NCBI GenBank assembly: GCA_035347995.1
Contig: DAOPQD010000001.1
Coordinates: 46,012-110,011, forward strand
DNA from: Anaerolineae bacterium
GTDB lineage: Bacteria; Chloroflexota; Anaerolineae; B4-G1; SLSP01
DNA length: 64,000 nt
Reading direction: 5' to 3'
Positions 1 to 16,817 of this stretch are shown piece after piece. The position numbers and the translations under genes are program-made. A model generated the notes under the pieces. The model was not told the DNA's origin, made no database searches, and worked only from the letters and a program-made list of their open reading frames with translations. Each line of letters starts with the position of its first letter. Positions within the stretch are counted from its first letter, which is position 1.

Positions 1-980
1 CGGTCACCTTGATTTCTGAGCGTCTGGGCTATCCGGGAGTGGCGCTCTTTTTGCAAGAGGAAGCTGGCGCGGAGGACGACCCACAATCCCGTCACGGGTT
101 GCTGTTGCGCGCGGCTGCGGGCGAGCGTGCGGCGGAGCACCTGCAGGCCGGCTTGCGATTGCCGCTAGAGGGAGGAAGTCCAGCCGCGCGCAGCCTCGCA
201 CTGCGTGGGGCCCAGCTGTCGGAGGAGGTCAGTCTTCCTTTGCTGACGGCGCCGGAGGGGAATGGGCATGTGACTGAGATCGCCTTGCCGCTGCTGCGGG
301 GCGAAAAGGCCCTGGGCGCGTTGTGTATCCATACCCTCGCCGCTGAGGGCTTCAGTGCGGACGACGTGGCGATGTTGCAGACGCTGGCTGACCAGCTGGC
401 CAATGCGCTGGAGATCGCGCGCTTGCTGGCGGAAGCGGATCGTAATGTGCGCCAGCTCGAGGCGGCCATTGGAACGTACACGGTGGACTCCTGGCGGGAG
501 TACCTCACCCGCACCCGGCGCCTGCGGGCGTATCGCTACGACGGCGTGGACCTGGAAATGATGACCGAACGCACTCCTGAAGCGCAACAGGCCTGGCGTG
601 AGGGGCGCGCTGTGGTGTATCGGCAGCCGTCTTCCGATGGGACGGAAACTGAGGGAGAGGTCACGACCCTGGCCTTGCCCATCCGTGTGCGCGAGCAGGT
701 CATCGGCGTGCTCCACATTCGCTCACGGGGGGAGCAGCTGGCTGCGGATACGCTGCCCCTCCTTGAAGAAATCGGCTCACGGTTGGGGCAGGCGCTCGAG
801 GTGGCCCGCTTGTTGGAAGACACCCGGGCGCGGGCGGCGCGCGAACAACTGGCCGGCGCCATCTCTGGACGGGTGCGTGCTGAAATGGAAGTGGAATCGC
901 TGTTGGAACGGGCCTTGCGTGAGCTCAGCCAGGCGCTCGGCGTGCGCCGGGCGGCCGTGGAATTGGAAGTGAAGGAGTAG
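1..980 (+). CDS. GAF domain-containing sensor protein, C-terminal part (5' partial; gene begins upstream of the window)
   Basis: The reading frame is open from base 3 with no upstream stop; the track ORF 9..980 starts at a TTG. It contains GAF-like modules and the conserved C-terminal cap motif ...LLEDTRARAAREQLAGAISGRVRAEMEVESLLERALRELSQALGVRRAAVELEVKE shared with the following paralogs. An RBS for the next gene (GAAGGAG) lies at its 3' end. Confidence 0.6.
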   Translation, partial: VTLISERLGYPGVALFLQEEAGAEDDPQSRHGLLLRAAAGERAAEHLQAGLRLPLEGGSPAARSLALRGAQLSEEVSLPLLTAPEGNGHVTEIALPLLRGEKALGALCIHTLAAEGFSADDVAMLQTLADQLANALEIARLLAEADRNVRQLEAAIGTYTVDSWREYLTRTRRLRAYRYDGVDLEMMTERTPEAQQAWREGRAVVYRQPSSDGTETEGEVTTLALPIRVREQVIGVLHIRSRGEQLAADTLPLLEEIGSRLGQALEVARLLEDTRARAAREQLAGAISGRVRAEMEVESLLERALRELSQALGVRRAAVELEVKE

Positions 981-983
981 GCC

Positions 984-2732
984 ATGGCGACGAATGGCGT
1001 GATGAGGGAGCCCTCAGATCGGGAAATGCAGCTCCCCCGGCGGAAGAAGACGGATCCCCAACCTGCGCTGGCGCGGTGGCTCCGTGTCTGGGATGCCAAC
1101 GGCGACGAGGTGCGCATGGCGACGCTCCTCAACCTCGCGTTGCTGATGGGCGGCATTGCCTCGATCGGGGTGCCGGCGTTCTTCGCGGGGATGCGCGCTC
1201 TGACGTCGCCGCTGCTTGTTTTGGGCGGGGTGAGCCTGGTGGGGCATGGCCTGGGGCTGTTCTTCAACAAACGGGGCGCTTATCATCCTGTCGCTGCGAC
1301 CTATGTGCCCTTCGTCTTCGTGTTGGTGGCGCTGGCGATTCTCACCGGGGGGGGATCGCGTTCCAGCCTGTGGGTATTTTTCGTGTGGCCGATGGTGATT
1401 GCTACGAGTTTCCTCTCCCGCACGGCGGCGCGCGGCCTGTTTCTGGGGACCGTACTGTTGGGGGTGGGGATCCTCGTGGCGGAGGAGACCGGCGTTTATG
1501 TGCCACCCGGGGAAGCGGCTGTCGAGGCCCGGCGTGTTATTCCTCTGTTTGTGGTGCTGCTGTTGGGCATGTGTATGCCGTTGTTGGGAGACGTTTTGGG
1601 CTATCTCTCGGCGATGCGAGCCGAATTTGAAAAGGCTGTGATGACCCTGCAGCATCACCGGGCGTCGTTGGAACTGCAGGCGCGCGAGCGTACCGCTGAG
1701 GCGGAATACTTCTCCCGCAATCTGATGATGTTGGAGGAACTTGATGCTATCATCGCTCTGGCGACCGATCTGGGGGAGCTGCTGGACCGGACGGTGCATT
1801 TGCTCTCCGAGACTTTCAATGCCTATGAGGTGATGGTGTTCCTGGCGGATGAGAGCGGCAAGCGCCTGGTGTTGGAGGCATCGGTGCGGGGATTGTCCCC
1901 TGACATTCAGCTGCGTCTGGGCGAGGAAGGGATTGTCGGCTATGCCACGGCCATCGGACGCCCTTATGTGGCGACCGACGTGCGCGCCGATCCTTACTAC
2001 AAGCCATTCCCCGAGCTGGCGGCTTCGGCCTCGGCGGCGGCTTTGCCCATCATCTTGCAGGGGGAGGTGCTGGGCGTGGTGGCTTTGGAGAGCACGGCGC
2101 CCGACGCGTTCTCCGAAATGGTCATGGAAGTGCTCTCGGCGGTGACCAACGTCGTGGGTGTGGCCATTCTCAATGTTCGTCATCTGGAGCAGTCCCGCCG
2201 TCTGCAGGAACGGCTCTCGCGGTACGAACAGGAAGAGTTCCTGGGGCAATGGCGGCAGCTCTTCGCGCGGCGGCAGGGGCACATCGGCTTGTTGTATGAC
2301 CTGGTGCAGGTACGGCCGGTCGTGCCGGAGGAGGGTGAGGCACTTTTTGGCGGCCTCCAACCCGTGCAGATTGAGGCCCAGGATCGCCCGGACGGCGGGC
2401 ACGTCTTGCTCGTGCCTCTCAATGTGGGTGAGCGCACGTTGGGGCGGATGGCATTCGAATCCGACCGCCCCTGGCGTGAGGATGAGCGCGCTTTGGTGGA
2501 AGCGGTCACCAGTCAGCTCGGCCTGGCGTTGGAGAACGCCCGGCTGCTGGAGGCGACCCGGCGCAGCGCTCTATTGGAACAGACTGCCGGCGAATTGACC
2601 TCGCGTTTCCGCCAGCAGGTGGAAATCGAGGCCGTCTTGCAGCAGGCGCTGGCAGACCTGGCGCAGGCGTTAGGCTCGGAACGCGCTGCCGTGCGGCTGA
2701 TGTTGGAAGAGGAAAGGGAGGGCCAGGCCTGA
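984..2732 (+). CDS. Membrane-anchored GAF sensor protein with no output domain (multi-TM N-terminal domain plus two GAF modules)
   Basis: ATG at 984 is preceded by GAAGGAG. Residues ~35-200 are strongly hydrophobic with 5-6 predicted TM helices. Two GAF-like modules follow (for example GIVGYATAIGRPYVATDVRADPYY ... ALPIILQGEVLGVVALES) and the conserved C-terminal cap. The stop overlaps the next ATG (TGATG at 2730-2734). Confidence 0.7.
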   Translation: MATNGVMREPSDREMQLPRRKKTDPQPALARWLRVWDANGDEVRMATLLNLALLMGGIASIGVPAFFAGMRALTSPLLVLGGVSLVGHGLGLFFNKRGAYHPVAATYVPFVFVLVALAILTGGGSRSSLWVFFVWPMVIATSFLSRTAARGLFLGTVLLGVGILVAEETGVYVPPGEAAVEARRVIPLFVVLLLGMCMPLLGDVLGYLSAMRAEFEKAVMTLQHHRASLELQARERTAEAEYFSRNLMMLEELDAIIALATDLGELLDRTVHLLSETFNAYEVMVFLADESGKRLVLEASVRGLSPDIQLRLGEEGIVGYATAIGRPYVATDVRADPYYKPFPELAASASAAALPIILQGEVLGVVALESTAPDAFSEMVMEVLSAVTNVVGVAILNVRHLEQSRRLQERLSRYEQEEFLGQWRQLFARRQGHIGLLYDLVQVRPVVPEEGEALFGGLQPVQIEAQDRPDGGHVLLVPLNVGERTLGRMAFESDRPWREDERALVEAVTSQLGLALENARLLEATRRSALLEQTAGELTSRFRQQVEIEAVLQQALADLAQALGSERAAVRLMLEEEREGQA

Positions 2733-4492
2733 TGGAAACTCAAACCGCGCCTGCAGCGGCCTCTTTGAACTGGTGGGAACGGCTGATACGGGTGGCGTCC
2801 CCTGATCCTGAAATAGAACGTCAGGGGCGGGTTTTCAATATTTTGATGTTGGTCAGCACGGGATTGGTGTTGTACCTCGCCACTTCTTTTCTCGCGAGCT
2901 ACCTGTTAGGGTATCTGGACGTGACGACGGCGGCCATTGCAGCGGCGTTTCCGCTGGCGTTTGTGCCTGTCTCTCTAGGCTGCATCGCGGTAGTCAAGCG
3001 CGGCCATCTGCGGCAGGCGGTTCCTGCATATGTCTGGATCAATTTTGTGGGGATCGGGGCCGCGGTGTATGTGTTTGACGGCCCGGTGTCTGCCGCGTGG
3101 GTGTTGTTCATCTGGACGGTCACCGTCGCGGGCATTTTGATTGCCCCCCGCTACGCGCTGCTGATGACGGGGCTGGTTGTCGGCTGCTATGGGTTGTTGC
3201 TGGGGGCCTCGCGGCTGGGGCTCTATACCCCACCTATCTTGTTGCCGCCGCAAGGCAGGACTTTTTTGACCTTTGCGTTCATCCTCGGGGTGCTGGTCAC
3301 CACGGGGGGACTGCTCACGTATCTGAACATGCGCAGCCTGAATGCCGCCTTCAGCAATGTGACCGCGATGAAACAGCAGTTGGAGCTCTCGCAGCAGCAA
3401 TTGGAGCAGCGCGTCGCCGACCGCACGGAGGCATTGCAGCGCCGGACGGCGCAGTTCGGGGCCATCGTCGCGGTAGGACAGGGAATCGCGGGGCTCACGG
3501 ATTTGGGCGCGCTCTTGCAGACGGCAGCTGACTTGATCTGCCAGCATTTCGCTATCACGCATGTGGGCATTTATCTGGTAGATGATGTCCGCGCCTCGCT
3601 GCGTTTGCGGGCGGCGGCGGGTGGAGTGGGATCGCAGCGCTTCGCGGAGCGCGCCAATCTGCTCCTGGCCGAACACGGTATGGTGCAGAGCGTCGTGAAC
3701 ACCGGGCGCCTGCGGCTGGCCACGACGCCCATGGAACTGGCGCGTTGGGCGGGGCCGCCAGAATGGCCCGTCATTCAGGCCGAGCTGGCTTTGCCTCTGG
3801 TGAGCGGCGGCGCGGTGATAGGGGTCCTGGACCTCCTGAGTGTTGAGGTGGGGACATTCGACCAGGAAGCTCGTGAGGCCTTGACTTTGATGGCGAACAA
3901 CCTGACGAGCACCCTTGAAAATACACGCCTGCTGGCCGATATGCGGGAATCGTTGAGCCGTTTGGAAAAGTACCAGGAGGAAGATGTGGTGCGCGGTTGG
4001 CGAACGGCGCTGGCGCGGCGAAACCGCCGGGTGGATTATGCCTATGATCGCCTGATGATCCAACCCGGTCTCTCCGAAGAGCTGGAGCAGCTGGTGGAAA
4101 ATTATGCGCCTGCAGGCGTGGAGACGCTCGAATACGGCGGAGCCTATTGGCTGATGGCGCCGCTGCGGGTGCAACAACGCTTGTTGGGTACCCTGGCCTT
4201 CGAATCGCCGCGCCCCTGGACTGAGGATCAACAGCGTCTGGCGACGACGGTGGTGGACCAATTGGGGCTGGCGCTTGAAAACGCCCGGCTGCTGGAGGAC
4301 ACCCGGCTCAGCGCCCAACGTGAGCGCGCCCGGGGTGAGATTGTGGGACGGGTGCGCGGCTCGGTGCAGATAGATGCCGTCTTGCGCAGCGCCGTGGAAG
4401 AGCTGGGACGCGCGCTCCAGGTGGATCGCGCCCGGATTCAGCTGCTGCCGCCTTCTGGCTCCGGCAGGGCCAATCCCAAGGTTGGGGGATGA
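2732..4492 (+). CDS. Membrane-anchored GAF sensor protein, paralog of the upstream gene (multi-TM N-terminus plus GAF modules)
   Basis: Same architecture as 984..2732: hydrophobic N-terminal ~200 aa, GAF module (HVGIYLVDDVRASLRLRAAAGG...ELALPLVSGGAVIGVLDL), and the conserved C-terminal cap (IDAVLRSAVEELGRALQVDRARIQL). It is translationally coupled to both neighbours. Confidence 0.7.
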   Translation: METQTAPAAASLNWWERLIRVASPDPEIERQGRVFNILMLVSTGLVLYLATSFLASYLLGYLDVTTAAIAAAFPLAFVPVSLGCIAVVKRGHLRQAVPAYVWINFVGIGAAVYVFDGPVSAAWVLFIWTVTVAGILIAPRYALLMTGLVVGCYGLLLGASRLGLYTPPILLPPQGRTFLTFAFILGVLVTTGGLLTYLNMRSLNAAFSNVTAMKQQLELSQQQLEQRVADRTEALQRRTAQFGAIVAVGQGIAGLTDLGALLQTAADLICQHFAITHVGIYLVDDVRASLRLRAAAGGVGSQRFAERANLLLAEHGMVQSVVNTGRLRLATTPMELARWAGPPEWPVIQAELALPLVSGGAVIGVLDLLSVEVGTFDQEAREALTLMANNLTSTLENTRLLADMRESLSRLEKYQEEDVVRGWRTALARRNRRVDYAYDRLMIQPGLSEELEQLVENYAPAGVETLEYGGAYWLMAPLRVQQRLLGTLAFESPRPWTEDQQRLATTVVDQLGLALENARLLEDTRLSAQRERARGEIVGRVRGSVQIDAVLRSAVEELGRALQVDRARIQLLPPSGSGRANPKVGG

Positions 4493-4493
4493 C

Positions 4494-5588
4494 ATGAGGC
4501 CGCTACGGAAATCGCGGAAAGGGTGGGCGGTGTTGGGCTTTTGCCTCTCGCTGGCGTTGCTGGCTTCGGCCTGTGCGCGAACGCCGGCCCCGACCGCGTC
4601 GCTTGCTCCCGTTGCTTTGACGCCGGCGCCGTCGGCCTCGCTGCGGCTGTTTCTCATTTATGGCGGAGACGTATCGGAGACCTGGGGCGGGCAGGTGCGG
4701 ATTGGCCTGGTTGAAACCCTGGTCAGGGAAGGAGAATATCGGCTGGGGGAGACCCTGGTGTTGGGTGAATATCGGCTGCCCCTCGATGTCGGAACACTGG
4801 TCGCGCCGGGCACGACGGCGATCGCGGAGGCCATCGCCCAGAGCCAGGCGTTTGCCCCTGATATTCTCATCACGGTGGGCAATCAGGCGACCCGACAGGT
4901 GATTTCGGCTTACCCCGATCCCCATCAGCGGATCGTGTTTTGCAGTTTCAGCGGCAACGTCATCGCCAGCGGCTTGAACCGTCCCAACGTGACGGGCGTT
5001 TTGGAGCTGCCCTACCCGATCCAGACGGGGCGCCTGGCGGTGAGCATGCTCGAAAATCCCGCGAAATTTATGGTTCTCGGGGACGTTTCCTCAACCGATA
5101 ACGTGGCGACGGAGGCCATCTTCGAGGCCCTGCTCAAGGATCCGCCGCACCCGGCCACACCCGTCTGGCGTCAGACGGATGATTGGGAGGAATGGCAGAC
5201 GTTCGTGCAGGAAGCCGCGACGCTGGATTTCGTGATTTTGGGCAAATACGATCACGTGCACGACGCTGCTGGCGCGCCGGTGCTGCCTGACGAAGTCCTG
5301 CGCTGGACGCTCCTGAATTCCGAGGCGCCGGTGTTTGGCCTGTGGCAGGAGACGGTCACGCAAGGCGCTGTGGGCGGCCTGGTTCTGTCGGGCGAGGAGC
5401 AGGGCAAATCCGCGGCCCGGCTGGCGCTCAGGATTGTGGGTGGGACGGATCCGGCGGCGCTGTTGCCACAGCGTCCTGAGCGCAACATCCTGACGCTCAA
5501 CCTGGCTGCAGCGCGACATTGGGGGTTGCTGGCGCCTTTTGAGCTGTTGGTCACCGCCAGTGTTGGCGGCACTTTCCCGGTGCCGTGA
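4494..5588 (+). CDS. Periplasmic substrate-binding lipoprotein, ABC_sub_bind family (PF04392-like)
   Basis: ATG at 4494 is preceded by GGGGGA and lies 2 nt after the upstream stop. A signal peptide with lipobox (LALLASAC) is present. The core ILITVGNQATRQVISAYPDPHQRIVFCSFSGNVIASGLNRPNVTGVLEL matches the PF04392 pattern (Dlil..gT..a......P.vF....dP.....n.TGv). The track ORF 4374..5588 includes an in-gene upstream ATG, which I rejected. Confidence 0.7.
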   Translation: MRPLRKSRKGWAVLGFCLSLALLASACARTPAPTASLAPVALTPAPSASLRLFLIYGGDVSETWGGQVRIGLVETLVREGEYRLGETLVLGEYRLPLDVGTLVAPGTTAIAEAIAQSQAFAPDILITVGNQATRQVISAYPDPHQRIVFCSFSGNVIASGLNRPNVTGVLELPYPIQTGRLAVSMLENPAKFMVLGDVSSTDNVATEAIFEALLKDPPHPATPVWRQTDDWEEWQTFVQEAATLDFVILGKYDHVHDAAGAPVLPDEVLRWTLLNSEAPVFGLWQETVTQGAVGGLVLSGEEQGKSAARLALRIVGGTDPAALLPQRPERNILTLNLAAARHWGLLAPFELLVTASVGGTFPVP

Positions 5589-5752
5589 GCCGTTGGCATT
5601 GTCGCGGGGAAGCTGCTGGCGGAGTTGGGTGAAGGGAAACAAGGGCGCAATAAAAGTTACCAGTGCGGAACCGGAGCGTTTCCAATTGGGAACCGCATCG
5701 TTTCCCACCTGGCAGAGAGTTTTACATGCCTGGTAAAGAATTTTGCAAGCAT

Positions 5753-5814
5753 GAGAACGTAGACGTGCGAACGTGCGAACGTAAGATCCGCTGACTTGCT
5801 GATTCGCTTATTTT
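5753..5814. repeat. Promoter-proximal 8-bp-period tandem repeats upstream of the HAMP-GAF sensor gene (GAACGTGC type followed by GATTCGCT type)
   Basis: gagaacgt|agacgtgc|gaacgtgc|gaacgtaa followed by ctgacttg|ctgattcg|cttatttt, ending 2 nt before the RBS GGGGAG. Confidence 0.65.
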
Positions 5815-5829
5815 CAGGGGAGATTGAGC

Positions 5830-8800
5830 ATGCACAGAAAAGGCTTGAGCCTGCGTTGGCAGATGGTGCTCATCATCGTCGTGTTGCCCTTGCTGCTATT
5901 GACGCCGTTGCTGTTTTTCGCGGGTGCGCAATTCCGCAGCGAGTATCGGGAGGCGCGCTTGGGAAAAGGGCACATGATCACGCAGCAGGTACGTCAGCAC
6001 GTGGATGTAGTCGCGCCGTTCATTGCTTCGGTGCGTGATGTGCCGGGCCTGGAGCGTTACCTGCGCGATAGTATTGCCGGTCAGCCGGAGCTGGCTTTCG
6101 CGGCCCTGGTACGCGGCGATGGCATCATCGTGCTGCATTCGACGTCGGGTATGGCGGGGCAGGTCCTGATGGATCTGAACGTCCCGGATGTGCAAGTTCT
6201 CCAGACGCGCGTGCCGCAGTACGGTAACCTGCATCTCGTGGTCCGCCGCATGACTCGTCCCGACATCTCCGGGCAACGCTTGTACGCCGTGGTGGGGGCT
6301 TATAGCCCGATCGTCGATCCCCCCTGGTTGCCCTGGTTGCCGGTGGGCGGTGTGCTGATTTTGGCGCTGTTGTTACTGGTGCTGTTGCAGGTCTTCATGC
6401 GGCGCGCGGTGCTCAAACCCTTGGAGCAGCTCGCTGAGGGCGCTGCGATCGTGGGGGCGGGCGACCTTTCCTATGAAATTGGCATCCGCCGCGGCGATGA
6501 GATCGGCTTCCTGGCGCAATCGTTCAACGCCATGAGCGGTCGGTTGCGGGAGCTGGTGACGACGCTCGAGCAGCAAGTCGAAACGCGCACGGCAGACCTC
6601 GCGCGCCGTAATCAACAGCTTCAGGCGGTCTCTCTGGTCGCCCGGGAGGCGGTGACCATTCAGGACTTGCCCACGCTGTTGGAGACCACGGTCAACGCGA
6701 TTTCCCGACACTTCGGGTATTATCACGCCGGCATCTTTTGGGTAGATCAGCCGCGGGAATGGGCCGTGCTGCGCGCTGCTTCTTCAGAGGGCGGACAGCG
6801 CATGTTGGCGCGGGGACACCGTCTGCGGGTAGGACAGCAGGGCCTCGTGGGGAGCGTGGCGGCGACAGGGCAACCGCGCATCGCCCTGGATGTGGGGGAG
6901 GACGCCGTTTGGTTCGACAACCCCGACCTGCCCGAGACCCGCTCGGAGATGGCGTTGCCGCTGGTGGACACCGAGCAGCACGTTGTGGGCGTGTTGGACG
7001 TGCAGAGTTCTCAGGTGAGCGCTTTCTCTCCCGCCGACATTGAGGTCTTACAGCTGCTGGCAGATCAAGTCTCGGTGGGGCTGCGCAATGCGCTGCTCAT
7101 CGAACAGACGCAGAGCACGCTGGCCGAGCTCCAGGCCATTCAGCAGGACTACCGGCGGGAAGGCTGGGCGCGCGTGCTGAGTCGGCTCCAGGTGCAGGCG
7201 TATGAATACGATGGCGTGTTGGTCGAGCCGGTGTTGCCCTTGCCGGTGCCGGTGGAGCGCCTGACCGAAAGTAACACCCCCCTGGCCACTGGCGAGGCCG
7301 CGACGGTGATGACGCCGATGCAATACCGGGATCAGACCATCGGCATGTTGACGCTGTCGGATCCGGGGCGCGTGTGGACGGAAGAGGAATTCGCGTTGAT
7401 TCGCAGTGTGACGGATCAGGTCGCTTCGGCGCTGGAGACGGCGCGCCTCTTCGAGGAGACGCAGCGCACGGCGCGGCAGCAGGCGTTGCTCAACGCGGTC
7501 TTGCAGACAGCGGCCATGACCCTCGACCCCGATCAGGCGCTTGAGGAGATCGCGACGATTCTGGCGCGGGGTTTGGCGATGGCAGTGGGAGTCTTTATCT
7601 TCCCGCGCCGCGCCGCGACGGCGGAAGGCGGCGTGCCGCTGCCTCAAGAAGTGCGCTTGCAGGCCTTCGTGCTGCCCGAAGGTGAGAAGGCGCTCGACGC
7701 CGGGGCCTTCTATATGCTGCCCGCTGATTTGCAGATTTTCTTCCATGGGTTGATGGAGCCAGAACTGGGGAAACTGCTGCCGCTAGGACAGGTGCCATCG
7801 TTGGCCGGGAGTTACGACCTCGAGCGTGTGCTGTATGTGCCCATCCGCACGGCGACAGCGCAGGCGGGTTTCCTGGCGCTGGTGCGCCGGCAACAGGACG
7901 TGTTGCTTGACCCGGACACCCGCGCCCTGGCGCGCAACCTCGCCGGCCAGGTCGCCGTGGTCCTGGAAAACCTGCACCTCATGGAAGAGACACAGCGCCG
8001 TTCCGCCGAATTGCAGCTGCTGTATGAGGCCTCGCTGCGCTTTGGTCAGGTGCGGGATCCCGAAGCGACGGAAAGACTGGTCGTGGAAGAGGCGCAGGAG
8101 CTGCTCGTAGCGGCTGGGGCCGCCTTCTGGCGTTACGACGAGGCTCACGAGACCCTCCAGTGCGTGTGCGCGCAAGGGACGCTCACGTCCTATCAGGGGC
8201 TCGGGGTGCAACCGGGGCAGGGGCTGCCGGGCACGGCCTGGAGCGAGCGTCGGGTCATTCAGACCGGGGATTACATGACCTGGGAGCAGCTCGGTGCGGG
8301 GGAACTTTCGACCGTGGGGCCGGCGTTGGGCATCCCCTTGCTGGCAGCGCGCGGCGTGATTGGTGTGCTGTTGGTCACCCGTCCTCGCGGCGGGATGCCT
8401 TTCGACGCGGTAGTGAGCCGGCTGGCGGAACTCTTCGCCGCACAGGCGACGGTGGCTTTGGAAAACGCGCGTCTGTACCAGGAAAGCGCCCGGCGCGCGC
8501 GCGACCTGCAGCAGCTGTACGAGGCTGGCCTCGACATGATCGGGATGCGCGAGGTAGAGGCGGTGCTCACGCGGGGCGCGGAGTGGGCCTTGCGCCTCCT
8601 GGGCGTGCAGCGGACCCGCGCTTTCTTCTGGGCGCGTGGCAACGCCACTCCTTTCTCCGGTCATGCCGGGGCATCGCCCGCCTATGTGACTCCCGAAACG
8701 CTAGCCCCGCCTCGGGTCGCGGGTGTGACGGCCCGCGTGTTGCACGAGGGACAGCCGGTGATCGTCAATCGCTTGATTTCTGGGGACGAGATTGCGCCGG

Positions 8801-10308
8801 CCTTGCAAGAGCTGGGCCTGGTTTCCCAGGCCGCGGTGCCGTTGCGCCTGGGTGCGGAGACGGTGGGCGTGCTTTTCGCCAACAGCACCCAGGAGGGCTT
8901 CTTCACCGAGGAGGCGGTGCGTTTGCTGGAGTTCTTGGGGTCGCAGCTGGCGACGTCGGCGCAGAACGCGCTGCAATTCGGGCAGCTGCAGCAGACCCTG
9001 GCGGTGGTGGAGATGCAGGCCCGTTACCGCGATGCCGTCGCGCAGGGGACGGCGCAGCTGGCGGAACGGGGCACCGAATCCCTGCCGACGGTGTTGCAGC
9101 TTCTGGGGGAAACACTGGAAACTGACGCGGCGCAATACTGTGAATTGCGTTCGGAGGGCGCCGGTGGGTACTGGGAAGTGGCCGCACGGTGGACGCAGTC
9201 GAGCGCTGCCGGCCAGGCCGTGGCCGCCGCGTCCAAATGGCGCCGGGAAGATGTCCTGGAATGGCTGCCGGCCTTGCGCGCGGAGGGGATTGTCCGTGCG
9301 GATTGGCATGGCGCCAGTGCGGCGGAGCAGCGGATGTTGCAGGCCTTGGGCTTCCACTCGTTGCTGTTGATCGCGGTGCCGGGCGAGACGGCGGAGCCGA
9401 ACTTCATGGCTTTTGGCAACAGTCAGCGGGAACGCGATTGGAAGCCGGAGGAGCTGATTTCGGTGCGCACGGTGGCGGCGGCGCTTTCCAGCACCCTGGC
9501 GCGGGAGCGGCTGTTCCGCGAAGTGCAGGCGGCGCTGGCCGAGACCGAGATGTTGTACGAAGCCGGGGGCGCGCTGAACGCTGCGCAGACTTACGGGCAG
9601 ATTCTGGACGTGATGCGCCAGTACACGGCGCTCGGCAGCGGGGCGCACTTCGCGGCGACGTTGTTGTATGACCGGCCCTGGACCGAGCGTCAGCGCCCGA
9701 CGAAGGCCCTGCTGGCGGCCCGCTGGACCGCGACGCCGGCAAGCGACGTTTCCCTCCTGGCGCGGGGCAACGCCTTCTCTTTGCTGGAACCCTACCTGCG
9801 GCGCGAGCGCAGCTCGACGATCACGGACGTGACCCGCGAAGTGGAGCCCCTCGCCCCGGCGCGCATCTTTTTCGAGGAAGACCTGGGGGCGCGCACCCTC
9901 GTGTTCGCCCCGCTGGCGGCAGGCGGGCAGACCATCGGCACGCTGATGGCGGCCTTTGATGCCGTGACTCGCCTCACAGAGGAAGAGCAACGCCGATTGA
10001 GCACCCTCACAGGGCAGGCGGCGATCGCCATCCAGAACCTCTATCAGCTGGAAGCCACTGCGGCGCGGGCGCGGCGCGAGCAGCTCATCCGCGAGATCGG
10101 CGAGCAGTTGCAGGCAGCGCCGGACGTGCAGAGCGTGTTGCAGACGGCAGCGCGCGAATTGGGACGCGCTTTGGAGACGCCGCGGGCGGTAGTGCGCCTT
10201 GGCGCTGTGGGACCCGCGCGACGCAAGAAACCTACCGGAGAGCTGGCGTCGCGCGCTGCTGACGAGCCGAATCCCGTGGAAGATGATGGCGCGTCCACGG
10301 AGGAGTAG
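5830..10308 (+). CDS. Membrane sensor protein with periplasmic sensor domain, TM2, HAMP, about eight GAF modules, and no kinase or other output domain
   Basis: The track start is TTG 5824; an ATG at 5830 has RBS GGGGAG 8 nt upstream. TM1 is LIIVVLPLLLLTPLLFFAGA, followed by an extracytoplasmic region of ~150 aa, then TM2 (GGVLILALLLLVLLQVF) and HAMP (LEQLAEGAAIVGAGDLSYEIGIRRGDEIGFLAQSFNAMSGRLRELV). Repeated GAF modules follow, including the signature FGYYHAGIFWVDQPREWAVLRAASSEGG...RSEMALPL. It ends with the conserved cap motif. Confidence 0.75.
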   Translation: MHRKGLSLRWQMVLIIVVLPLLLLTPLLFFAGAQFRSEYREARLGKGHMITQQVRQHVDVVAPFIASVRDVPGLERYLRDSIAGQPELAFAALVRGDGIIVLHSTSGMAGQVLMDLNVPDVQVLQTRVPQYGNLHLVVRRMTRPDISGQRLYAVVGAYSPIVDPPWLPWLPVGGVLILALLLLVLLQVFMRRAVLKPLEQLAEGAAIVGAGDLSYEIGIRRGDEIGFLAQSFNAMSGRLRELVTTLEQQVETRTADLARRNQQLQAVSLVAREAVTIQDLPTLLETTVNAISRHFGYYHAGIFWVDQPREWAVLRAASSEGGQRMLARGHRLRVGQQGLVGSVAATGQPRIALDVGEDAVWFDNPDLPETRSEMALPLVDTEQHVVGVLDVQSSQVSAFSPADIEVLQLLADQVSVGLRNALLIEQTQSTLAELQAIQQDYRREGWARVLSRLQVQAYEYDGVLVEPVLPLPVPVERLTESNTPLATGEAATVMTPMQYRDQTIGMLTLSDPGRVWTEEEFALIRSVTDQVASALETARLFEETQRTARQQALLNAVLQTAAMTLDPDQALEEIATILARGLAMAVGVFIFPRRAATAEGGVPLPQEVRLQAFVLPEGEKALDAGAFYMLPADLQIFFHGLMEPELGKLLPLGQVPSLAGSYDLERVLYVPIRTATAQAGFLALVRRQQDVLLDPDTRALARNLAGQVAVVLENLHLMEETQRRSAELQLLYEASLRFGQVRDPEATERLVVEEAQELLVAAGAAFWRYDEAHETLQCVCAQGTLTSYQGLGVQPGQGLPGTAWSERRVIQTGDYMTWEQLGAGELSTVGPALGIPLLAARGVIGVLLVTRPRGGMPFDAVVSRLAELFAAQATVALENARLYQESARRARDLQQLYEAGLDMIGMREVEAVLTRGAEWALRLLGVQRTRAFFWARGNATPFSGHAGASPAYVTPETLAPPRVAGVTARVLHEGQPVIVNRLISGDEIAPALQELGLVSQAAVPLRLGAETVGVLFANSTQEGFFTEEAVRLLEFLGSQLATSAQNALQFGQLQQTLAVVEMQARYRDAVAQGTAQLAERGTESLPTVLQLLGETLETDAAQYCELRSEGAGGYWEVAARWTQSSAAGQAVAAASKWRREDVLEWLPALRAEGIVRADWHGASAAEQRMLQALGFHSLLLIAVPGETAEPNFMAFGNSQRERDWKPEELISVRTVAAALSSTLARERLFREVQAALAETEMLYEAGGALNAAQTYGQILDVMRQYTALGSGAHFAATLLYDRPWTERQRPTKALLAARWTATPASDVSLLARGNAFSLLEPYLRRERSSTITDVTREVEPLAPARIFFEEDLGARTLVFAPLAAGGQTIGTLMAAFDAVTRLTEEEQRRLSTLTGQAAIAIQNLYQLEATAARARREQLIREIGEQLQAAPDVQSVLQTAARELGRALETPRAVVRLGAVGPARRKKPTGELASRAADEPNPVEDDGASTEE

Positions 10309-10322
10309 GGAGACCTGAGAGT

Positions 10323-13300
10323 ATGAATGCTGATGCCTTGCAATTTGACCCGGGTGTTTCGCTGGCTGCCATAACGGCGATTTCCAGGTCCGCGCTGCGT
10401 GCGGGGGGACTTGCGCAGCTGGGCGAACAGATCGTGGCTCTTGTCACGCAGCTGTGCTCTTGCCCGGCGGCGCTCTTCTATGCTGCCGATGGCGACTCCA
10501 AGACGGCGTCCCGCCTGCTTCCGCGCGCGGCGGTGGGGCTGCCCCTTGTGCAGCTCCCGCCGCTGGGAGTGGTCAACCTGGAACGGGACGGGGTGCGTGA
10601 AGAGCCGGTGGTATGGCAGACGCCGGAACAGATGGCGGTGTTGCAGTTGCCAACGTCCCCGCAGGGCGTGCTCCTGGCGCCGGTCACCCTCGCCGGGAAA
10701 ATAATTGGCCTGATCTGCGCACTGCAGCTGGAGCCGGGCAAGGCCTTCTCACCCGCCGCGCCGCCGCTGTTGGGCTTGCTGGCGGCCCACGTCGGGGACA
10801 CGCTGGAATCCATGACCGCTTATCGGGAGCTGGAGCAGGATTACGAGCTATTACAACGGCGGTATCAGGCGATGAGCTCGATGTACGAGATCTCGCTCGA
10901 ACTGGCGCGACAACAGCGCGAGCTGGATCCCATGCTTGAGAGTTTGGGGCCCCGCATTGTGAGATTGCTCGATGCTACCGGCGGCGGTATCTGGCTCTGG
11001 CGTGAGGGAGAGCAGCAGTTGGAGCTGGTGCTGTCACTGCAGAGCGGCTACGCGACCAAAGTGGGGACGCGGTTGGCGCCGGGTGAGGGGTTGGTGGGCC
11101 AGGCCTATGTCGCCAAACAGCTCCAGGTACGGAATGATTACGGACAGTGGGCCAATCGTCCTGCCGAATTCCAGGCCGCGCCTTTCCGCGCGGCCATGGC
11201 CATTCCTCTTTTGTGGCAGGATCAGGTCGTCGGCGTCCTTGTGGCGACGGATGACCGGGAGGGGCGAGCTTTCACGCCTTACGATCAGTATCTGGGACAG
11301 TTGCTGGCCAGCCAGGTGGTGATCTTCATTCAAAACGCGCAGCTTTTCGGTCAGACCCAAAGATCTCTGGCACGGACTGAGGCGTTGTATCGGGCGAACC
11401 GTTCTGTCACCTCCCTGGTGAGCGTTGAAGAGACGTTGCAAACGGTGGTGGACGGCGTGGCCGAGGTGCTCGACGCGGATCAGGTGGTGATCTACACCTT
11501 CAACTTTACGGCTGAAGAGGTCACGCACGCGGTGAGAGGCGGCCGGATCCGGGAAGAGCATAATTTGCTTTCCTTCGATGAGTTACAGCACGGCTTGAGT
11601 GGCTGGGTGATTGCTAACCGGCAACCGGTCTATTCGCCTAAGGGCTTTGAGGACCCCCGTGAAGGTCGGGAGGCCAGCGAGCGACGCAAACGCCATCGCA
11701 CCGGGGCTGTCATTGTGGTCCCGTTGCAGTATCGCGGCGAGTTGCTAGGGACAATGACGGCTTTCAACAGCCTGGATCGCCCTGATTTTTCTCCTGAGGA
11801 TGTAGACCTGATGGTCGCCATGGCCTCACAGGCGGCGGCAGCGGTGGCCAACGCGCAGCTGTTTGAAAACATGCGCCGGGCTCTCGTCCGCACGCAGGCC
11901 CTGTATCAGGTGGGGCGCGCGGTCATGCTGGTGAAAGACCTGGAGGAAGTGTTGCAGGAGATCACCGAGCAGGTCGCCGCTACGTTGCCGGCCAATCGGG
12001 TGTCCCTCATGACCTTCGATGTGGAAACGGAGCGGGTAACGCATTTCGCGCGCGGCGGACCGGGCAAGGAATTCATCGCCTTGGACGTGTCATATCAGGA
12101 ACTCTGGGCGGGGTTGAGCGGGTGGGTGCTGCGCGAGGGCCATCCGACGCTCTCTCCAAAGGACCGGCCCGACCCGCGTGAGACGCCGGAGGTGCAGCAA
12201 CGCCGCCTGGAAACGCACTGCGGTTCCATCATGGTGGCGCCGATTATCTACCGCGGCGTGACGTTGGGCACGATGACGGCGATCAACTTGCCGGAGGAGC
12301 GCGACTTCAACGACGAGGATCTGGAACTCCTCGTGGGCATGGTCAATCAGGCGGCGGCAGCGATCGCCAACGCGCAGTTGTTTGCGGCGGCACAGCGCCG
12401 CACGCAGTTGTTGAGCACGGGGGCGGAGGTCTCGCGGGCGGCGTATTCGATCCTTGACGTGGATGAATTGCTGCCCCAGCTCGCGGCCCTCATTCGCGAG
12501 CGCTTCGGTCTCTACTACGTGGGGATTTTCCTGGTGGACGCGGAAGGACAGTGGGCCGTGTTGCGCGCCGGCACCGGGGAAGCCGGCGCGCGGATGCTGG
12601 CGGCGGGACATCGGTTGCGGGTCGGGGGGCAATCCATGATCGGGGCGTGCGTGGCCACCCGTCAGGCGCGCATTGCCCTGGACGTGGGGGCGGAGGCGGT
12701 GCGTTTTGACAACCCCGAACTGCCGGCGACGCGCTCTGAAATGGCGCTGCCCCTCGTCGCGCGCGGCGAGGCGGTCGGCGCCATGACCATTCAATCGGAG
12801 CTGCCGCGAGCCTTCAGCGAGGACGACATCCTCATGTTGCAGACGATGGCGGATCAGATCGCGACGGCGATTGTGAATGCCCGGCTGTTCAGTCAGGCGC
12901 GCCGGGCGGCGTTAGAGGCCGAGTCCAACCAGATTTTGCTCAGGTCCATCATCGAATCTATCCCCAACCCCGTCTTCTACAAGGACATCCACGGAGTCCA
13001 TCGCATCGTCAACAAGGCCTTTGCTGAGGAGGTGTTGGGCCTGCCGCCAGAACAGATTTTGGGCAAGACTATGCTCGAATTGCCGGAAGCCATTGATCCC
13101 GAAGTGGCGCGGCCACAGCATGAATCCGATATGGCGTTGATTCGTGAGCCGGGGGTGCAGACGTTCGAGACGCGGTCGCGGTATGCGGATGGCGTCGAGC
13201 ATGACGTGATTTTCAGCAAATCTACGGTTTTTGATGCTCAGGGCGCCGTGATCGGCATGGTGGGGGTGATGAACGATATTACCTCCCGCAAGCAGCTGCT

Positions 13301-16300
13301 CGCTGCCCTGGAATACCGCACGCAGCAATTGCAGACGGCGGCGGAGATTTCGCGGGCGACCTCCTCGATCCTCAACCTGGAGGAATTGCTGCCTCGCGCT
13401 GTGGAACTCGTCCGCGAGCGTTTTGGATATTACTACGTCGGCGCTTTCCTGATTGACGATACGGGAAAATGGGCCGTGTTGCGCGCTGGCACCGGCGCGG
13501 CCGGCGCGCAGATGCTGCAGATGGGACACCGCCTGCTGATTGGCGGGCAATCCATGGTGGGAATGGCGATGCAGGAACGCCAGTCCCGTATCGCCTTCGA
13601 CGTGGGCCGTGAGGCGGTGCGTTTCGACAATCCGCTTTTGCCGGAGACCCGCTCGGAGATTGCCCTGCCCTTGATCTCGCGCGGCGACGTGATCGGTGCG
13701 CTGACCATTCAATCCGCCTTGCCGGAGGCGTTCTCCGAAAGCGACATTCTGGTGCTGGAGACGGTGGCGGATCAGATCGCCAGTGCCATTGCGAACGCCT
13801 GGCTCTTTGCTGAGGCCCAGGAGCGGTTCGAGGAGTTGCAGCGTCTGCAACGCGAACTTACCGGTGAAGCCTGGGCCCACTATGTGCGCGGACAGACAGT
13901 GGTAGGATATGCCTACGATGCGGCCCGCCTGGTTCCGTTGCTGGAATCCGGCTCGGAACCGGCGGATGAAGTGAGCCAGCTGTGGCGGCAACGTGAAGCG
14001 TTAGCGCTGGCCGACCTGACGCACGGGGAGATGGTGCAGCGACAGGACGATCAGGGGGCCTTTGTGCTGGCGCCTATCACCTCGCCGCTGGGCGAACCCT
14101 TGGGGGTTTTGGGGGTGGATACCACGCTCGAGACGCCGGAGGCGGGTTGGTCGGAGGAGGATCTGGAGCTGCTTCAGGCGGTGCGCGAGCAGGTCGGCAT
14201 GGCCTTGGAAAACCGGCTGTTGTTTGAGCAGACGACGTCGGTGCTGACCGAGACCACGACCCTGTATGAGGTGGGACAGAAGATCACCGAGGCGCACACC
14301 GAGGCGGACATCTTCCACGCGGTGATCGAGGGCCTCAGCCGTCGTCCGGAGTCAGAACGGGTGTCGGTAGGGCTTTTCGAGCCGCTGGACAATCCGGCGC
14401 AGCTGCGTGTGGTAGATGGTTGGGCGCGCGAAGGGCAAGCCGTGGCAGCGGGTAATGTCTATCCGCTGTTGTACTGGCAGGCGGTGTATACATCCCTGGA
14501 GGGTGAGGGCGCGTTTATATGCCCGAATATTGATCAGGAGTCGCGGTTCGGTCCGGAAATCCGGGGCATGTTCGAGTATTTGAAGGTGCGCGGCTTTGTG
14601 GCTTTCCAGCTGCGGGTGCGCGGGATGCTTTACGGCACCATTCTCGTCTACACGAAAGAGCCGCATGAGTTCACCCCTGAGGAATTGCGCTTCTATGCCA
14701 CGCTGACACGCAACACCTCCGTAGCGTTGGAGAACCTGTTCCTGTTGGAGACGACGCGGCAGGAGGCCGAACGTCGCGCCCTGCTCAATGAAGTGATGAG
14801 CACCGCCTCCGCCAGCCTCGATCCTGACGATCTGGTCCATGACACGACACAGCTGATCGCGCAACGGCTTGAAATGCCGGCCCTCTACTGGGTCTACCGC
14901 GGTGGAGTGCTTGAAGCTGCGGCTGTGTACCGTTTTGACGGTTCGGCGCTGGTCGTGGAAGGGCCTCAGGAGCGGTTTGTGCCCGAAGATGTCCCGGAGT
15001 TGACCGAAGCGGTGTTGTCAAAGCTCGATTATCGGTGGAACTTTACGTCCTCACCGGGATTGGTGAGTCCCTTCGATGTCTATCGTACGGCGCTCGATCT
15101 GGAGGAGCTCCTCGTGCTCCCCGTGCTGATCCGTGACGAGGTGTTGGGGGTGCTGGTGCTGGGACAGCAGCGCGGACATCCGGCCATTGACGAGAATGAG
15201 ACGGCCTTCTTGCGCAACGCCGCGGTGAACATCGGCGTGGCGCTGGAAAACGCGCAGCTGTACCAGGAAGCCCAGGAGACGGCGGAAAAACTCAAGGAGG
15301 TTGACCGCCTGAAGAGCGAATTCCTGGCGAACATGTCGCACGAGTTGCGCACGCCCCTCAACTCCATCATCGGCTTCTCGCGGGTGATCCTCAAGGGGAT
15401 TGACGGCCCGATTACCGATCTGCAGAAGACAGACCTGGAGGCGATCTATCAGAGCGGACGGCACTTGCTGGAATTGATCAACGACATCCTCGATCAATCC
15501 AAGATCGAAGCGGGTAAGATGGAGTACACCTTCGAGCCAACAGACTTGATGGAGATTATTCGGGGGGTGATGTCAACCTCGATTGCTCTGGTCAAGGACA
15601 AGCCGATCGAGCTGCAGCAGCAGCTGCCCGAAGCCCTGCCCACGATCATCGCTGATAGCCGGCGGATACGCCAGGTGTTGTTGAACCTGGTGGGCAATGC
15701 CGCCAAATTCACCGAGCAGGGCTTCATCTCGCTGTCGGCGTGGGCGGACGAGGAATGGGTCACGATTGCCGTGCAGGACTCCGGTGTAGGGATTCCCAGG
15801 GACCGCTATGGCGCGGTGTTCACCCCCTTTGAGCAGGTGGATTCCTCCTCATCGCGGCGCTTTGGAGGCACGGGACTGGGGCTGCCGGTAAGCAAGCGGT
15901 TTGTCGAAGCCCATGGCGGTTCGATCTGGTTTGAGAGCGAGCTGGGCGTCGGCTCGACCTTCTATGTGAAATTGCCCATCGCCGGCCCGCCGGCAGAAAA
16001 GCCCGCTGAGGAAGAATGGCCCGTCCGCGCTCCCCGCTCCGAGGGCGAGGACTCCAAGGGATTGCTGGTGTTGACCGTGGATGACGACGCCGGCGTGATC
16101 ACGCTGTTCCGACGGTATCTGAGCAAGCAGGGATACCGGGTTGTGGGCCTCACACGTGGCGACCGCGTGGTGGAGGAGGCCAAACGCCTCAAGCCGTATG
16201 CCATCACCCTGGACATTTTGATGCCGGATCGCAGTGGCTGGGAGGTGATTCGTGATCTCAAATCCGATCCGCTCACCCGCAATATTCCCGTGATCGTGTG

Positions 16301-16817
16301 CTCTATCCTCGCCGAGCGCGACAAAGGCCTCAGTATGGGCGTGGCGGACTATCTGGTGAAGCCTATTCTGGAGCAAGATTTGTTGAGCGCGTTGGCCCGG
16401 CTTTCCCATGACCTTACCAAGACGCATGTGCTGGTGGTGGACGACAATCCAGATGATCGGAACCTGCTTGAACGTATATTGGCTGATGCTGGCTACATCG
16501 TCGCTACTGCCAGCAACGGCGTGGAAGCGATTGCGGATCTGGCTCTGTCGCCGCCCGACCTGGTAGTGCTCGACCTGATGATGCCCGACGTGGATGGCTT
16601 CGCCGTCCTGGAGAACATGAAGGCGCGCCCGGAGACCTGCGATATTCCCGTCATCGTTGCCACGGCCAAGGAACTCAGTGCGGCTGAGCGGGCCGCCTTG
16701 ACGGTGCGGGTGCAGGCTCTGTTGCAGAAGGGCCTCTTTGACCAGGAGCGCCTCTTAGAGGATGTGGCAGCGGCGTTGGCGCGGTTGGGCCCGGCGCGTC
16801 AAGATACCCATCGGTGA
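10323..16817 (+). CDS. Giant cytoplasmic hybrid sensor histidine kinase: about ten GAF modules, PAS, HisKA, HATPase_c and two receiver domains
   Basis: Single 2164-aa ORF, ATG 14 nt after the upstream stop. No TM segments. Duplicated GAF-PAS-GAF module (FGLYYVGIFLVDAEGQWAVLRAGTGEAG.. / FGYYYVGAFLIDDTGKWAVLRAGTGAAG..). PAS is IIESIPNPVFYKDIHGVHRIVNKAF.., and the H-box is EFLANMSHELRTPLNSIIGFS. G-boxes are GTGLGLPVSKRFVEAHGGSIWFESELGVGSTFYV. REC1 carries LVLTVDDDAG...ITLDILMPDRSG and REC2 carries VLVVDDNPDD...VVLDLMMPDVDG. Confidence 0.85.
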   Translation: MNADALQFDPGVSLAAITAISRSALRAGGLAQLGEQIVALVTQLCSCPAALFYAADGDSKTASRLLPRAAVGLPLVQLPPLGVVNLERDGVREEPVVWQTPEQMAVLQLPTSPQGVLLAPVTLAGKIIGLICALQLEPGKAFSPAAPPLLGLLAAHVGDTLESMTAYRELEQDYELLQRRYQAMSSMYEISLELARQQRELDPMLESLGPRIVRLLDATGGGIWLWREGEQQLELVLSLQSGYATKVGTRLAPGEGLVGQAYVAKQLQVRNDYGQWANRPAEFQAAPFRAAMAIPLLWQDQVVGVLVATDDREGRAFTPYDQYLGQLLASQVVIFIQNAQLFGQTQRSLARTEALYRANRSVTSLVSVEETLQTVVDGVAEVLDADQVVIYTFNFTAEEVTHAVRGGRIREEHNLLSFDELQHGLSGWVIANRQPVYSPKGFEDPREGREASERRKRHRTGAVIVVPLQYRGELLGTMTAFNSLDRPDFSPEDVDLMVAMASQAAAAVANAQLFENMRRALVRTQALYQVGRAVMLVKDLEEVLQEITEQVAATLPANRVSLMTFDVETERVTHFARGGPGKEFIALDVSYQELWAGLSGWVLREGHPTLSPKDRPDPRETPEVQQRRLETHCGSIMVAPIIYRGVTLGTMTAINLPEERDFNDEDLELLVGMVNQAAAAIANAQLFAAAQRRTQLLSTGAEVSRAAYSILDVDELLPQLAALIRERFGLYYVGIFLVDAEGQWAVLRAGTGEAGARMLAAGHRLRVGGQSMIGACVATRQARIALDVGAEAVRFDNPELPATRSEMALPLVARGEAVGAMTIQSELPRAFSEDDILMLQTMADQIATAIVNARLFSQARRAALEAESNQILLRSIIESIPNPVFYKDIHGVHRIVNKAFAEEVLGLPPEQILGKTMLELPEAIDPEVARPQHESDMALIREPGVQTFETRSRYADGVEHDVIFSKSTVFDAQGAVIGMVGVMNDITSRKQLLAALEYRTQQLQTAAEISRATSSILNLEELLPRAVELVRERFGYYYVGAFLIDDTGKWAVLRAGTGAAGAQMLQMGHRLLIGGQSMVGMAMQERQSRIAFDVGREAVRFDNPLLPETRSEIALPLISRGDVIGALTIQSALPEAFSESDILVLETVADQIASAIANAWLFAEAQERFEELQRLQRELTGEAWAHYVRGQTVVGYAYDAARLVPLLESGSEPADEVSQLWRQREALALADLTHGEMVQRQDDQGAFVLAPITSPLGEPLGVLGVDTTLETPEAGWSEEDLELLQAVREQVGMALENRLLFEQTTSVLTETTTLYEVGQKITEAHTEADIFHAVIEGLSRRPESERVSVGLFEPLDNPAQLRVVDGWAREGQAVAAGNVYPLLYWQAVYTSLEGEGAFICPNIDQESRFGPEIRGMFEYLKVRGFVAFQLRVRGMLYGTILVYTKEPHEFTPEELRFYATLTRNTSVALENLFLLETTRQEAERRALLNEVMSTASASLDPDDLVHDTTQLIAQRLEMPALYWVYRGGVLEAAAVYRFDGSALVVEGPQERFVPEDVPELTEAVLSKLDYRWNFTSSPGLVSPFDVYRTALDLEELLVLPVLIRDEVLGVLVLGQQRGHPAIDENETAFLRNAAVNIGVALENAQLYQEAQETAEKLKEVDRLKSEFLANMSHELRTPLNSIIGFSRVILKGIDGPITDLQKTDLEAIYQSGRHLLELINDILDQSKIEAGKMEYTFEPTDLMEIIRGVMSTSIALVKDKPIELQQQLPEALPTIIADSRRIRQVLLNLVGNAAKFTEQGFISLSAWADEEWVTIAVQDSGVGIPRDRYGAVFTPFEQVDSSSSRRFGGTGLGLPVSKRFVEAHGGSIWFESELGVGSTFYVKLPIAGPPAEKPAEEEWPVRAPRSEGEDSKGLLVLTVDDDAGVITLFRRYLSKQGYRVVGLTRGDRVVEEAKRLKPYAITLDILMPDRSGWEVIRDLKSDPLTRNIPVIVCSILAERDKGLSMGVADYLVKPILEQDLLSALARLSHDLTKTHVLVVDDNPDDRNLLERILADAGYIVATASNGVEAIADLALSPPDLVVLDLMMPDVDGFAVLENMKARPETCDIPVIVATAKELSAAERAALTVRVQALLQKGLFDQERLLEDVAAALARLGPARQDTHR

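Follow-up and report, generated by a model that had tools for sequence, protein, structure and literature searches.

The 64,000 nucleotides analysed here, a stretch of contig DAOPQD010000001.1 from an Anaerolineae bacterium (hereafter, the window), contain six co-directional genes within positions 1-16817 of the + strand, which encode four GAF-domain sensors devoid of an output domain (p1, p2, p3 and p5), a lipoprotein and a hybrid histidine kinase, and the genes beyond 16817 are unrelated to this sensor-kinase cluster. All four sensors end with the same element of 58 amino acids (aa), the subject of this study, which is a distinct and autonomously conserved C-terminal module. In the Anaerolineae, GAF sensors that are anchored in the membrane and lack an enzymatic domain form a very large family, and this module is their only "output" element. 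The genes of the cluster and their main features are the following:

3..980, + strand: p1, the 3' part of the gene of an output-less GAF sensor, whose 5' end lies beyond the window start; a GAF, a short GAF and the module are visible
984..2732, + strand: p2, an output-less sensor with ~5 transmembrane (TM) helices, a coiled coil, a full GAF, a Trp-linker helix, a short GAF and the module
2732..4492, + strand: p3, a paralog of p2 with a like architecture (5-6 TM helices, GAF, short GAF, module)
3923..4273, + strand: Trp-linker helix and short GAF of p3, matching only positions about 70/83-133 of the Pfam GAF profile
~4491..5588, + strand: lipoprotein (ABC_sub_bind-like), with weak similarity to substrate-binding proteins of ABC transporters, sitting within the sensor array
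5824..10308, + strand: p5, an output-less sensor with 2 TM helices, HAMP, several GAF (one of them short), a full GAF and the module
10323..16817, + strand: soluble hybrid histidine kinase of 2164 aa, the last gene of the cluster, with the domain order 5 GAF, PAS, GAF, short GAF, 2 GAF, HisKA, HATPase, 2 REC
14205..14387, + strand: junction between two GAF inside the kinase, the one named in the initial annotation

The assignment of p2, p3 and p5 as integral membrane proteins, and of the kinase as a soluble one, comes from inspecting the hydrophobic segments one by one. A crude hydropathy count tends to take GAF beta-hairpins for TM segments and was applied only after this inspection; in fact, the apparent hydrophobic segments of the kinase are GAF beta-hairpins and not TM helices.

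The four terminal copies and their conservation

The copies of the module in the window, all on the strand of their genes, are located as follows:

795..968, + strand: module of p1, 58 aa, LEVARLLEDTR...AAVELE, with a 3-aa tail and the stop codon at 978-980; 93.6 bits
2529..2702, + strand: module of p2, LENARLLEATR...AAVRLM, with a 9-aa acidic tail and the stop codon at 2730-2732; 93.9 bits
4274..4447, + strand: module of p3, LENARLLEDTR...ARIQLL, with a 14-aa tail and the stop codon at 4490-4492
10030..10203, + strand: module of p5, IQNLYQLEAT...AVVRLG, with a 34-aa tail containing RRKKPTGEL and the stop codon at 10306-10308

A six-frame profile scan of the 64-kb window finds exactly these four copies, all at gene ends, with scores of 93-100 bits. 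The last 61-92 residues of the proteins align without gaps over 58-61 columns, 13 of which are invariant, with 34-48% identity to p3, and BLASTP with composition adjustment joins even the farthest pair, p3 and p5, in an ungapped alignment (E 2e-8). The common alignment of the four C-termini that had been proposed from the window alone is therefore borne out, gap-free over 58 residues, and the suspicion that the similarity might be merely compositional falls with the adjusted E value. Other details of that proposal need correction. The motif LE(N/V)ARLLE, attributed to all four copies, is present in p1, p2 and p3, whereas p5 reads IQNLYQLEAT; the supposed variable linker of ~15 aa holds residues that are conserved throughout the family (A14, R/K16, E17, I23 and K/R26, in module numbering); and the stop codon does not always come within a few residues of the module, the low-complexity tails being 3, 9, 14 and 34 residues long.

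The module is common well beyond the window. A profile of the four copies matches 7480 cluster representatives at E<=1e-3 and 955 at E<=1e-10, and when the best 150 profile matches and the homologs of p3 were re-scanned, the 141 C-terminal matches showed a median of 74 bits, and the 232 internal ones, which are ordinary GAF starts, a median of 16 bits. A genome scan yielded 80 loci, nearly all from Chloroflexota of the class Anaerolineae (Anaerolineales, Caldilineaceae, Thermoflexales, Villigracilaceae, Ornatilinea), to which three metagenome loci were added, for a set of 83 related loci. Here a match was called strong at a profile score of >=40 bits and terminal when it lay <=60 residues from the stop codon. 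By this measure 329 of the 331 strong matches are terminal, the remaining two are followed only by low-complexity sequence, and no folded domain lies behind the module in any of the 331. The inputs of the sensors that end in this way are varied and include multi-TM regions, MASE11, dCache-HAMP, HAMP and fusions to periplasmic-binding domains. A short GAF, entered via a Trp-containing helix, directly precedes 91% of the modules in the related loci; the module can also succeed a complete GAF, as it does in p5 and in the 224-aa protein P0100.

The short GAF itself, of ~115 aa and with the motif W..W/Y...YxY in its entry helix, fits GAF profiles over no more than their C-terminal two-thirds. It is found in the window at 420-794, 2175-2528 and 3923-4273, at residues ~425-537 of p5 and at residues ~1156-1295 of the kinase, so that it also occurs internally, besides preceding modules.

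We propose as a family, under the name of terminal GAF-stub module of Anaerolineae sensors, those sequences that match the 58-aa profile with >=40 bits, lie <=60 aa from the C-terminus and follow a GAF alpha5 ending LENARL(F/L); it includes all four window copies. No model in Pfam or NCBIfam covers the module, a Pfam scan of the isolated p3 module is empty, and the NCBIfam MadS match of p5 lies far below the family cut-off and covers only GAF and linker. In the literature searched, no description of this ending or of these sensor arrays was found. Proteins that would consist of the module alone (matches of 57-107 aa) are most likely frameshift artefacts, since the cases on long contigs (P0247 and P0268) lie in loci with many fragmented genes, directly behind a GAF gene that lacks its end. 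In two large contigs, those of L084 (942 kb) and L085 (400 kb), many sensor genes are split into open reading frames of 50-180 aa, apparently by frameshift errors, which create spurious stand-alone module proteins in public protein sets.

Conservation within orthologous groups is also strong. Of p3, 28 orthologs were collected from metagenomes of Anaerolineae, the most distant at ~42% identity; all end with the module and a short low-complexity tail, and their mean identity to p3 is 86% in the module, in comparison with 53% in the TM region, 44% in GAF1 and 56% in the short GAF; among distant orthologs the figures are 77% for the module and 32-42% elsewhere. Between the window and the ortholog in locus L003, the p3 module differs by 34 synonymous codons and 1 nonsynonymous codon, and the other three modules differ from their orthologs by 23-35 synonymous and 5-6 nonsynonymous codons. 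Because the codon changes are overwhelmingly synonymous, selection acts on the protein, and the module is a conserved functional feature under strong purifying selection. The ortholog of p1, which the window shows only in part, has ~1380 aa in the same locus.

Ancestry, predicted fold and signature of the module

The only Pfam family that recurs among 45 modules is GAF (PF01590, PF13185, PF13492), with weak matches in 12 of them (best E 0.003). Searched against the sequences of the PDB, the module profile retrieves 8w26 (E 3e-14), 6oap (1.5e-10) and 2lb5 (1e-8), and also 6bhn and 3w2z (to 1e-2), and in all these matches module positions 2/10-55 align to the N-terminal 45-55 residues of a GAF, that is, to the linker helix, alpha1 and beta1. 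The extent of the module corresponds to about positions 1-30 of the 133 of the GAF profile, roughly a fifth of a domain, so that the name "half GAF" given to it by the initial annotation is too generous. A complete GAF fold comprises a 5-6-stranded antiparallel sheet with helices on its flanks, in ~130-150 residues; here only ~45 residues are conserved past alpha5, before the tail and the stop. The element is homologous in sequence to GAF and is a GAF fragment, not a domain: a stub of ~45 residues from the N-terminus of a GAF, carried by a stalk.

The AlphaFold2 (AF2) model of full-length p3, obtained with a 96-sequence alignment (mean predicted local distance difference test, pLDDT, 84.9), shows the last helix of the short GAF running on as one helix over residues 498-544, then a break, a helix over 547-561 and an unpaired coil. 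This layout equals the start of GAF1 in the same model, and the terminal strand region is unpaired in the monomer. A Foldseek search with the complete p3 model brought up generic GAF and tandem-GAF proteins alone and was uninformative on the stub. Mean-field covariation, performed on 570 unique modules (effective number, Neff, 371) and on 426 cassettes, indicates a fold-back hairpin (pairs 23-45, 26-43, 30-39 and 19-47) with the last segment packed on both helices (pairs 28-50, 39-55 and 16-57). Taken as a model, the module would begin as a helical stalk of fixed length, in direct continuation of the helix that closes the preceding GAF; behind a turn, a helix of 15 residues would fold back on the stalk, followed by a short, amphipathic, strand-like segment. 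In the cassettes, parallel-register couplings also link p3 residues 404-408, in the helix after GAF1, with residues 528-532, which are module positions 14-18 (window ~3941-3955 and ~4313-4327); the two sites are far apart in the AF2 model, and either an artefact of paralogy or contact between molecules could lie behind the couplings.

When terminal modules were compared with the internal GAF junctions of the same genomes, a signature of their own emerged:

column 14: A in 92% of terminal modules and in 64% of internal junctions
column 16: R/K in 77% of terminal modules and in 13% of internal junctions
column 17: E in 90% of terminal modules, mostly Leu in internal junctions
column 39: T in 75% of terminal modules and in 11% of internal junctions
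column 43: E in 92% of terminal modules and in about 0% of internal junctions
columns 56 and 58: polar in terminal modules, hydrophobic in internal junctions

On the module profile, which was built from the four terminal copies, these copies reach 88-113 bits and the best internal GAF junction 10 bits; the kinase junction at 14205-14387 scores -2.5 bits, with E 0.33 in a pairwise comparison with the p3 module. The same module had been thought to recur inside the kinase at about 14200-14330; the layout is shared, but as the internal junctions lack the signature residues of the module, they are only its distant relatives. Its sequence places the origin of the module in the N-terminal part (linker helix, alpha1, beta1) of a cyanobacterial-type GAF, and A14, R/K16, E17, T39 and E43 mark its specialisation.

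The closest known structures are the GAF domains of cyanobacterial phytochromes and cyanobacteriochromes (SyB-Cph1 2lb5/8w26, 6oap, NpR6012g4 6bhn, AnPixJg2 3w2z), which share with the module the N-terminal sequence and the helix-turn-helix-strand layout. Unlike them, the module lacks everything from beta2 to alpha5 (~110 residues), the protein ending instead; it has its own invariant E17 (Leu at internal junctions), T39 and E43, and its strand is amphipathic rather than buried. It had also been described as a signalling helix plus the first helix of a GAF, and of this description the origin from a GAF N-terminus holds, while the S-helix label is not established. Like an S-helix, the stalk is a helical connector that leaves a sensory domain and carries conserved polar residues (R16-E17-R/Q18). 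S-helices, however, lie nearly always between two signalling domains, bear an "ERT" signature in the central heptad of five and are distinct from inter-GAF linkers; the paper that defines them (Anantharaman, Balaji and Aravind 2006, PMC1592074) requires a downstream domain. Nothing folded stands behind the module helix. Positions 17-19 of the module read E (90%), R (53%) or Q (27%), and then L/T/A with T in only 17%, the a/d register that an ERT placed there would imply is not hydrophobic, and the hydrophobic positions I20, I23 and I27 covary with the fold-back helix, which is not zipper-like behaviour. A relationship with the DHp/HisKA_3 domain of histidine kinases, to which the MadS match of p5 had pointed, was considered and rejected, as no module column holds a conserved His, the H-box spacing differs and there is no HisKA match.

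Sensor arrays and their histidine kinases

The whole cluster is retained in orthologous loci, where an unbroken row of six or seven module-ending sensors comes with the lipoprotein, the HAMP multi-GAF sensor and, last, the kinase. Across the 83 loci the modules reach at least 8 per 16 kb, all co-directional, and in 31 of the 34 arrays whose 3' end is visible a kinase follows on the same strand, either directly (gap of -12 to +34 nucleotides) or after one gene of ~765 nucleotides. This intervening gene encodes a ParA/MinD-like ATPase (Pfam AAA_31, E 5e-49) in L042 (8213-9010) and in about 20 further loci, and may point to positioned or partitioned signalling clusters. It is absent from the window, where the last sensor ends at 10308 and the kinase starts at 10323; this kinase is the probable recipient of the signals of the sensors.

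Three types of kinase are found behind the arrays: soluble with a full N-terminal GAF, as in the window; with N-terminal TM segments; and with an N-terminal half-GAF (about 21 loci). The half-GAF kinases begin with MPKKKPxxKRLxxLFxxIxPE and a Pro/Ala/Lys-rich disordered linker of 50-100 aa, after which only positions 57-133 of the GAF profile are matched; they are found in L042 (8964-9500), L038, L040, L044, L045, L055, L056, L059, L061, L065, L067, L070, L075-L078, L080, L081 and L083. The MPKKKP peptide could be a motif of interaction with ParA, and the half-GAF could be a socket for the sensor stub.

Two side observations concern individual members of the arrays. The lipoprotein at ~4491-5588 has a signal peptide with the lipobox LLASAC, keeps its position in loci L001 and L003, and may bind ligands in the periplasm as the partner of a sensor. 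A motif in the tails, [KR]KKPxTGEL, stands behind the module in 4 of the 331 tails, which belong to three distinct sensors (L001 and L002 share one); such tails are those of p5 in the window (10204-10305) and the equivalent ones in L001, L003 and L007. The bearer is the sensor directly upstream of the kinase in the window, in L001/L002 and in L007, and in L003 it is followed by a large multi-GAF gene, with the kinase core beyond the edge of the locus.

Possible roles of the module

The interpretation starts from the existence of the module, its terminal position, the purifying selection on it, its homology to GAF N-termini, its operon linkage to kinases and the completion of a half-GAF in cis in fusion proteins. 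The reading that we tentatively prefer is that the module is an output or docking head, read out via the stalk helix, that links the sensors with the kinase or among themselves; since it marks rows of sensors directly upstream of one histidine kinase, it probably connects them to that kinase. The input domain would alter the GAF chain, rotating or shifting the stalk, and this shift would change the presentation of the terminal head. The head might then bind a GAF-type surface, made up of the last beta-hairpin and alpha5, either of the kinase encoded alongside or of a neighbouring sensor, through the contacts by which alpha1 and beta1 are held within a GAF. In this way a single kinase would have many membrane sensors attached to it, and these would modulate its activity. 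Both the binding in trans and the effect on the kinase are put forward with the same caution.

A lead comes from fusion proteins (P0066, P0068, P0084, P0085, P0092 and P0303) that carry the module internally and again at the C-terminus, with a low-complexity linker and then a half or short GAF between the two copies. In the AF2 model of P0085 (mean pLDDT 87.3) the strand of the internal stub (221-226) is paired, and the hairpin 244-261 and the helix 270-314 have pLDDT values of 83-91; this looks like a mini-GAF built in cis from stub and half-GAF, the pairing partner being read from the secondary-structure string, and P0303 is counted as a second natural fusion in which a stub completes a half-GAF. 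Within a GAF, alpha1 and beta1 lie against the last hairpin and alpha5; completion in cis fits this topology, and completion in trans is therefore conceivable, especially for the half-GAF kinases. The cis fusions and the half-GAF kinases suggest gene fission inside a mini-GAF. Together, the fusions (P0085 and P0303) and the kinases that start with a C-terminal half-GAF after a disordered linker lead to a bolder version, which we regard as doubtful, whereby the stubs would dock by fold complementation, as plugs in sockets, on half-GAF or GAF surfaces of a shared and often ParA-positioned kinase, in a complex resembling a chemoreceptor array but made of GAF parts.

Several observations weigh against a docking head. 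The window kinase opens with a complete GAF (profile 4-130), an orphan half-GAF was looked for in the window and none is present, and no partner surface was identified there. The signature of the module is identical in arrays whose kinase begins with a half-GAF, with TM segments or with a full GAF, so the N-terminal half-GAF cannot be a general socket, and we rejected it as the universal one. The idea of one sensor per kinase GAF was discarded as well, because the numbers do not match (in L037, 5 sensors stand upstream of a 906-aa kinase). Furthermore, the covariation shows a self-contained head, which would also fit a simple cap, and operon linkage is no proof of physical coupling.

Among the other explanations, a local truncation, a pseudogene or a purely compositional similarity has a negligible probability. 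Only the absence of an output domain speaks for it, whereas orthologs from many metagenome-assembled genomes (MAGs) share their stop position with hundreds of relatives, which argues against random truncation, as the initial annotation had surmised; the comparison of ortholog ends that it called for gives one common end position, and none of the 28 p3 orthologs extends into a full GAF or an output domain. The terminal placement of 329 of 331 matches, the synonymous bias of the codon changes and the composition-adjusted alignments agree with this, and the apparent stand-alone module reading frames are most likely frameshift artefacts of long-read assemblies. A small helix-turn-helix DNA-binding tail is very improbable: scattered sub-threshold Pfam matches (Sigma70_r4, HTH_6, GntR and HTH_23, each in 1-2 of the 45 modules) and the resemblance of ELGxALGVSRAxV to the turns of such motifs are outweighed by the recurrence of GAF alone (12 of 45), by the PDB matches to GAF N-termini, by the membrane-integral nature of the proteins, and by the shortness of the would-be recognition helix, a segment of only ~7 residues ahead of a Gly/Pro-rich tail that is predicted as coil or strand.

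A further, improbable alternative is a circularly permuted or domain-swapped GAF, in which the stub would give alpha1 and beta1 to the preceding short GAF, in cis or across an antiparallel dimer. The two pieces are complementary, as 91% of the modules stand behind a short GAF that matches only about positions 30/80-133 of the profile and the stub covers about 1-30, and prokaryotic inter-GAF coiled coils can be antiparallel (PMC1592074). In the AF2 model, however, the continuous 47-residue helix holds the stub ~65 Å from the short GAF, as estimated from helix length, and the short GAF already has a five-stranded sheet; the cassette covariation recovers the internal contacts of the short GAF and none from stub to sheet; p5 and P0100 bear the module behind a complete GAF; and antiparallel pairing would be hard to reconcile with two chains in the same membrane. 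Completion of the preceding short GAF by permutation is supported neither by AF2 nor by covariation and was set aside. The main rival to the docking head is a homodimer-specific structural cap: the stub would close and stabilise the end of a dimeric stalk and set paralog-specific homodimerisation with no external partner, and the sensors would work through other surfaces, or by having their GAF domains buffer ligands. This we consider somewhat unlikely. The self-contained three-element head given by covariation, the AF2 hairpin packed on its own stalk and the independence of the signature from the kinase class all fit a cap, as do modules nearly invariant among orthologs and 34-48% identical between paralogs, which is expected for dimerisation specificity. 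Yet an element that served only as a cap would not be expected to surpass the rest of the protein in conservation and to keep invariant polar residues of surface type (E17, T39 and E43), and a cap leaves the enzyme-less sensors without an output and the strict coupling of arrays and kinases unexplained.

For the docking head that we tentatively prefer, the closest functional analogies are the chemoreceptor tips with CheA and the RsbR paralogs of the stressosome, and the module is homologous to neither. The tips of the methyl-accepting chemotaxis proteins (MCPs), with CheA/CheW, would offer a parallel in that many membrane sensors with diverse inputs (dCache, HAMP) share one conserved helical-hairpin end with a soluble kinase alongside. 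Some chemotaxis clusters carry a ParA-like ATPase, and a gene for one occurs in many of the related sensor loci. Unlike the MCP system, the six window proteins contain no MCPsignal (PF00015) match and neither CheA nor CheW, the kinase is of the hybrid HisKA type with multiple GAF, and the hairpin has 30 residues and not about 300. The RsbR paralogs combine a variable N-terminal sensor with a conserved C-terminal STAS domain that assembles them with the kinase RsbT, and resemble the module-ending sensors, by analogy, as paralogous sensors with variable inputs, a shared conserved C-terminal element and one kinase; the latter differ in having no STAS and in being membrane proteins, and complex formation by them is putative.

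Thousands of output-less "GAF domain-containing proteins" are annotated in Chloroflexota MAGs, and the route by which they signal has been obscure. Such sensors have in common a strictly terminal, constrained module derived from GAF, and their genes form arrays, the longest with at least 8 sensors, upstream of one kinase. What is new here is the turning of a GAF fragment into a terminal module and the operon architecture of many sensors and one kinase, and the mechanism is only proposed. The module offers a concrete handle of 58 residues, with E17, T39 and E43 among its signature residues, and merits a family model of its own. If the stub does dock on the kinase, bacteria would have here a new way of feeding many signals from the environment into a single two-component pathway, and the system would provide a natural case of protein-fragment complementation within a common sensory fold.

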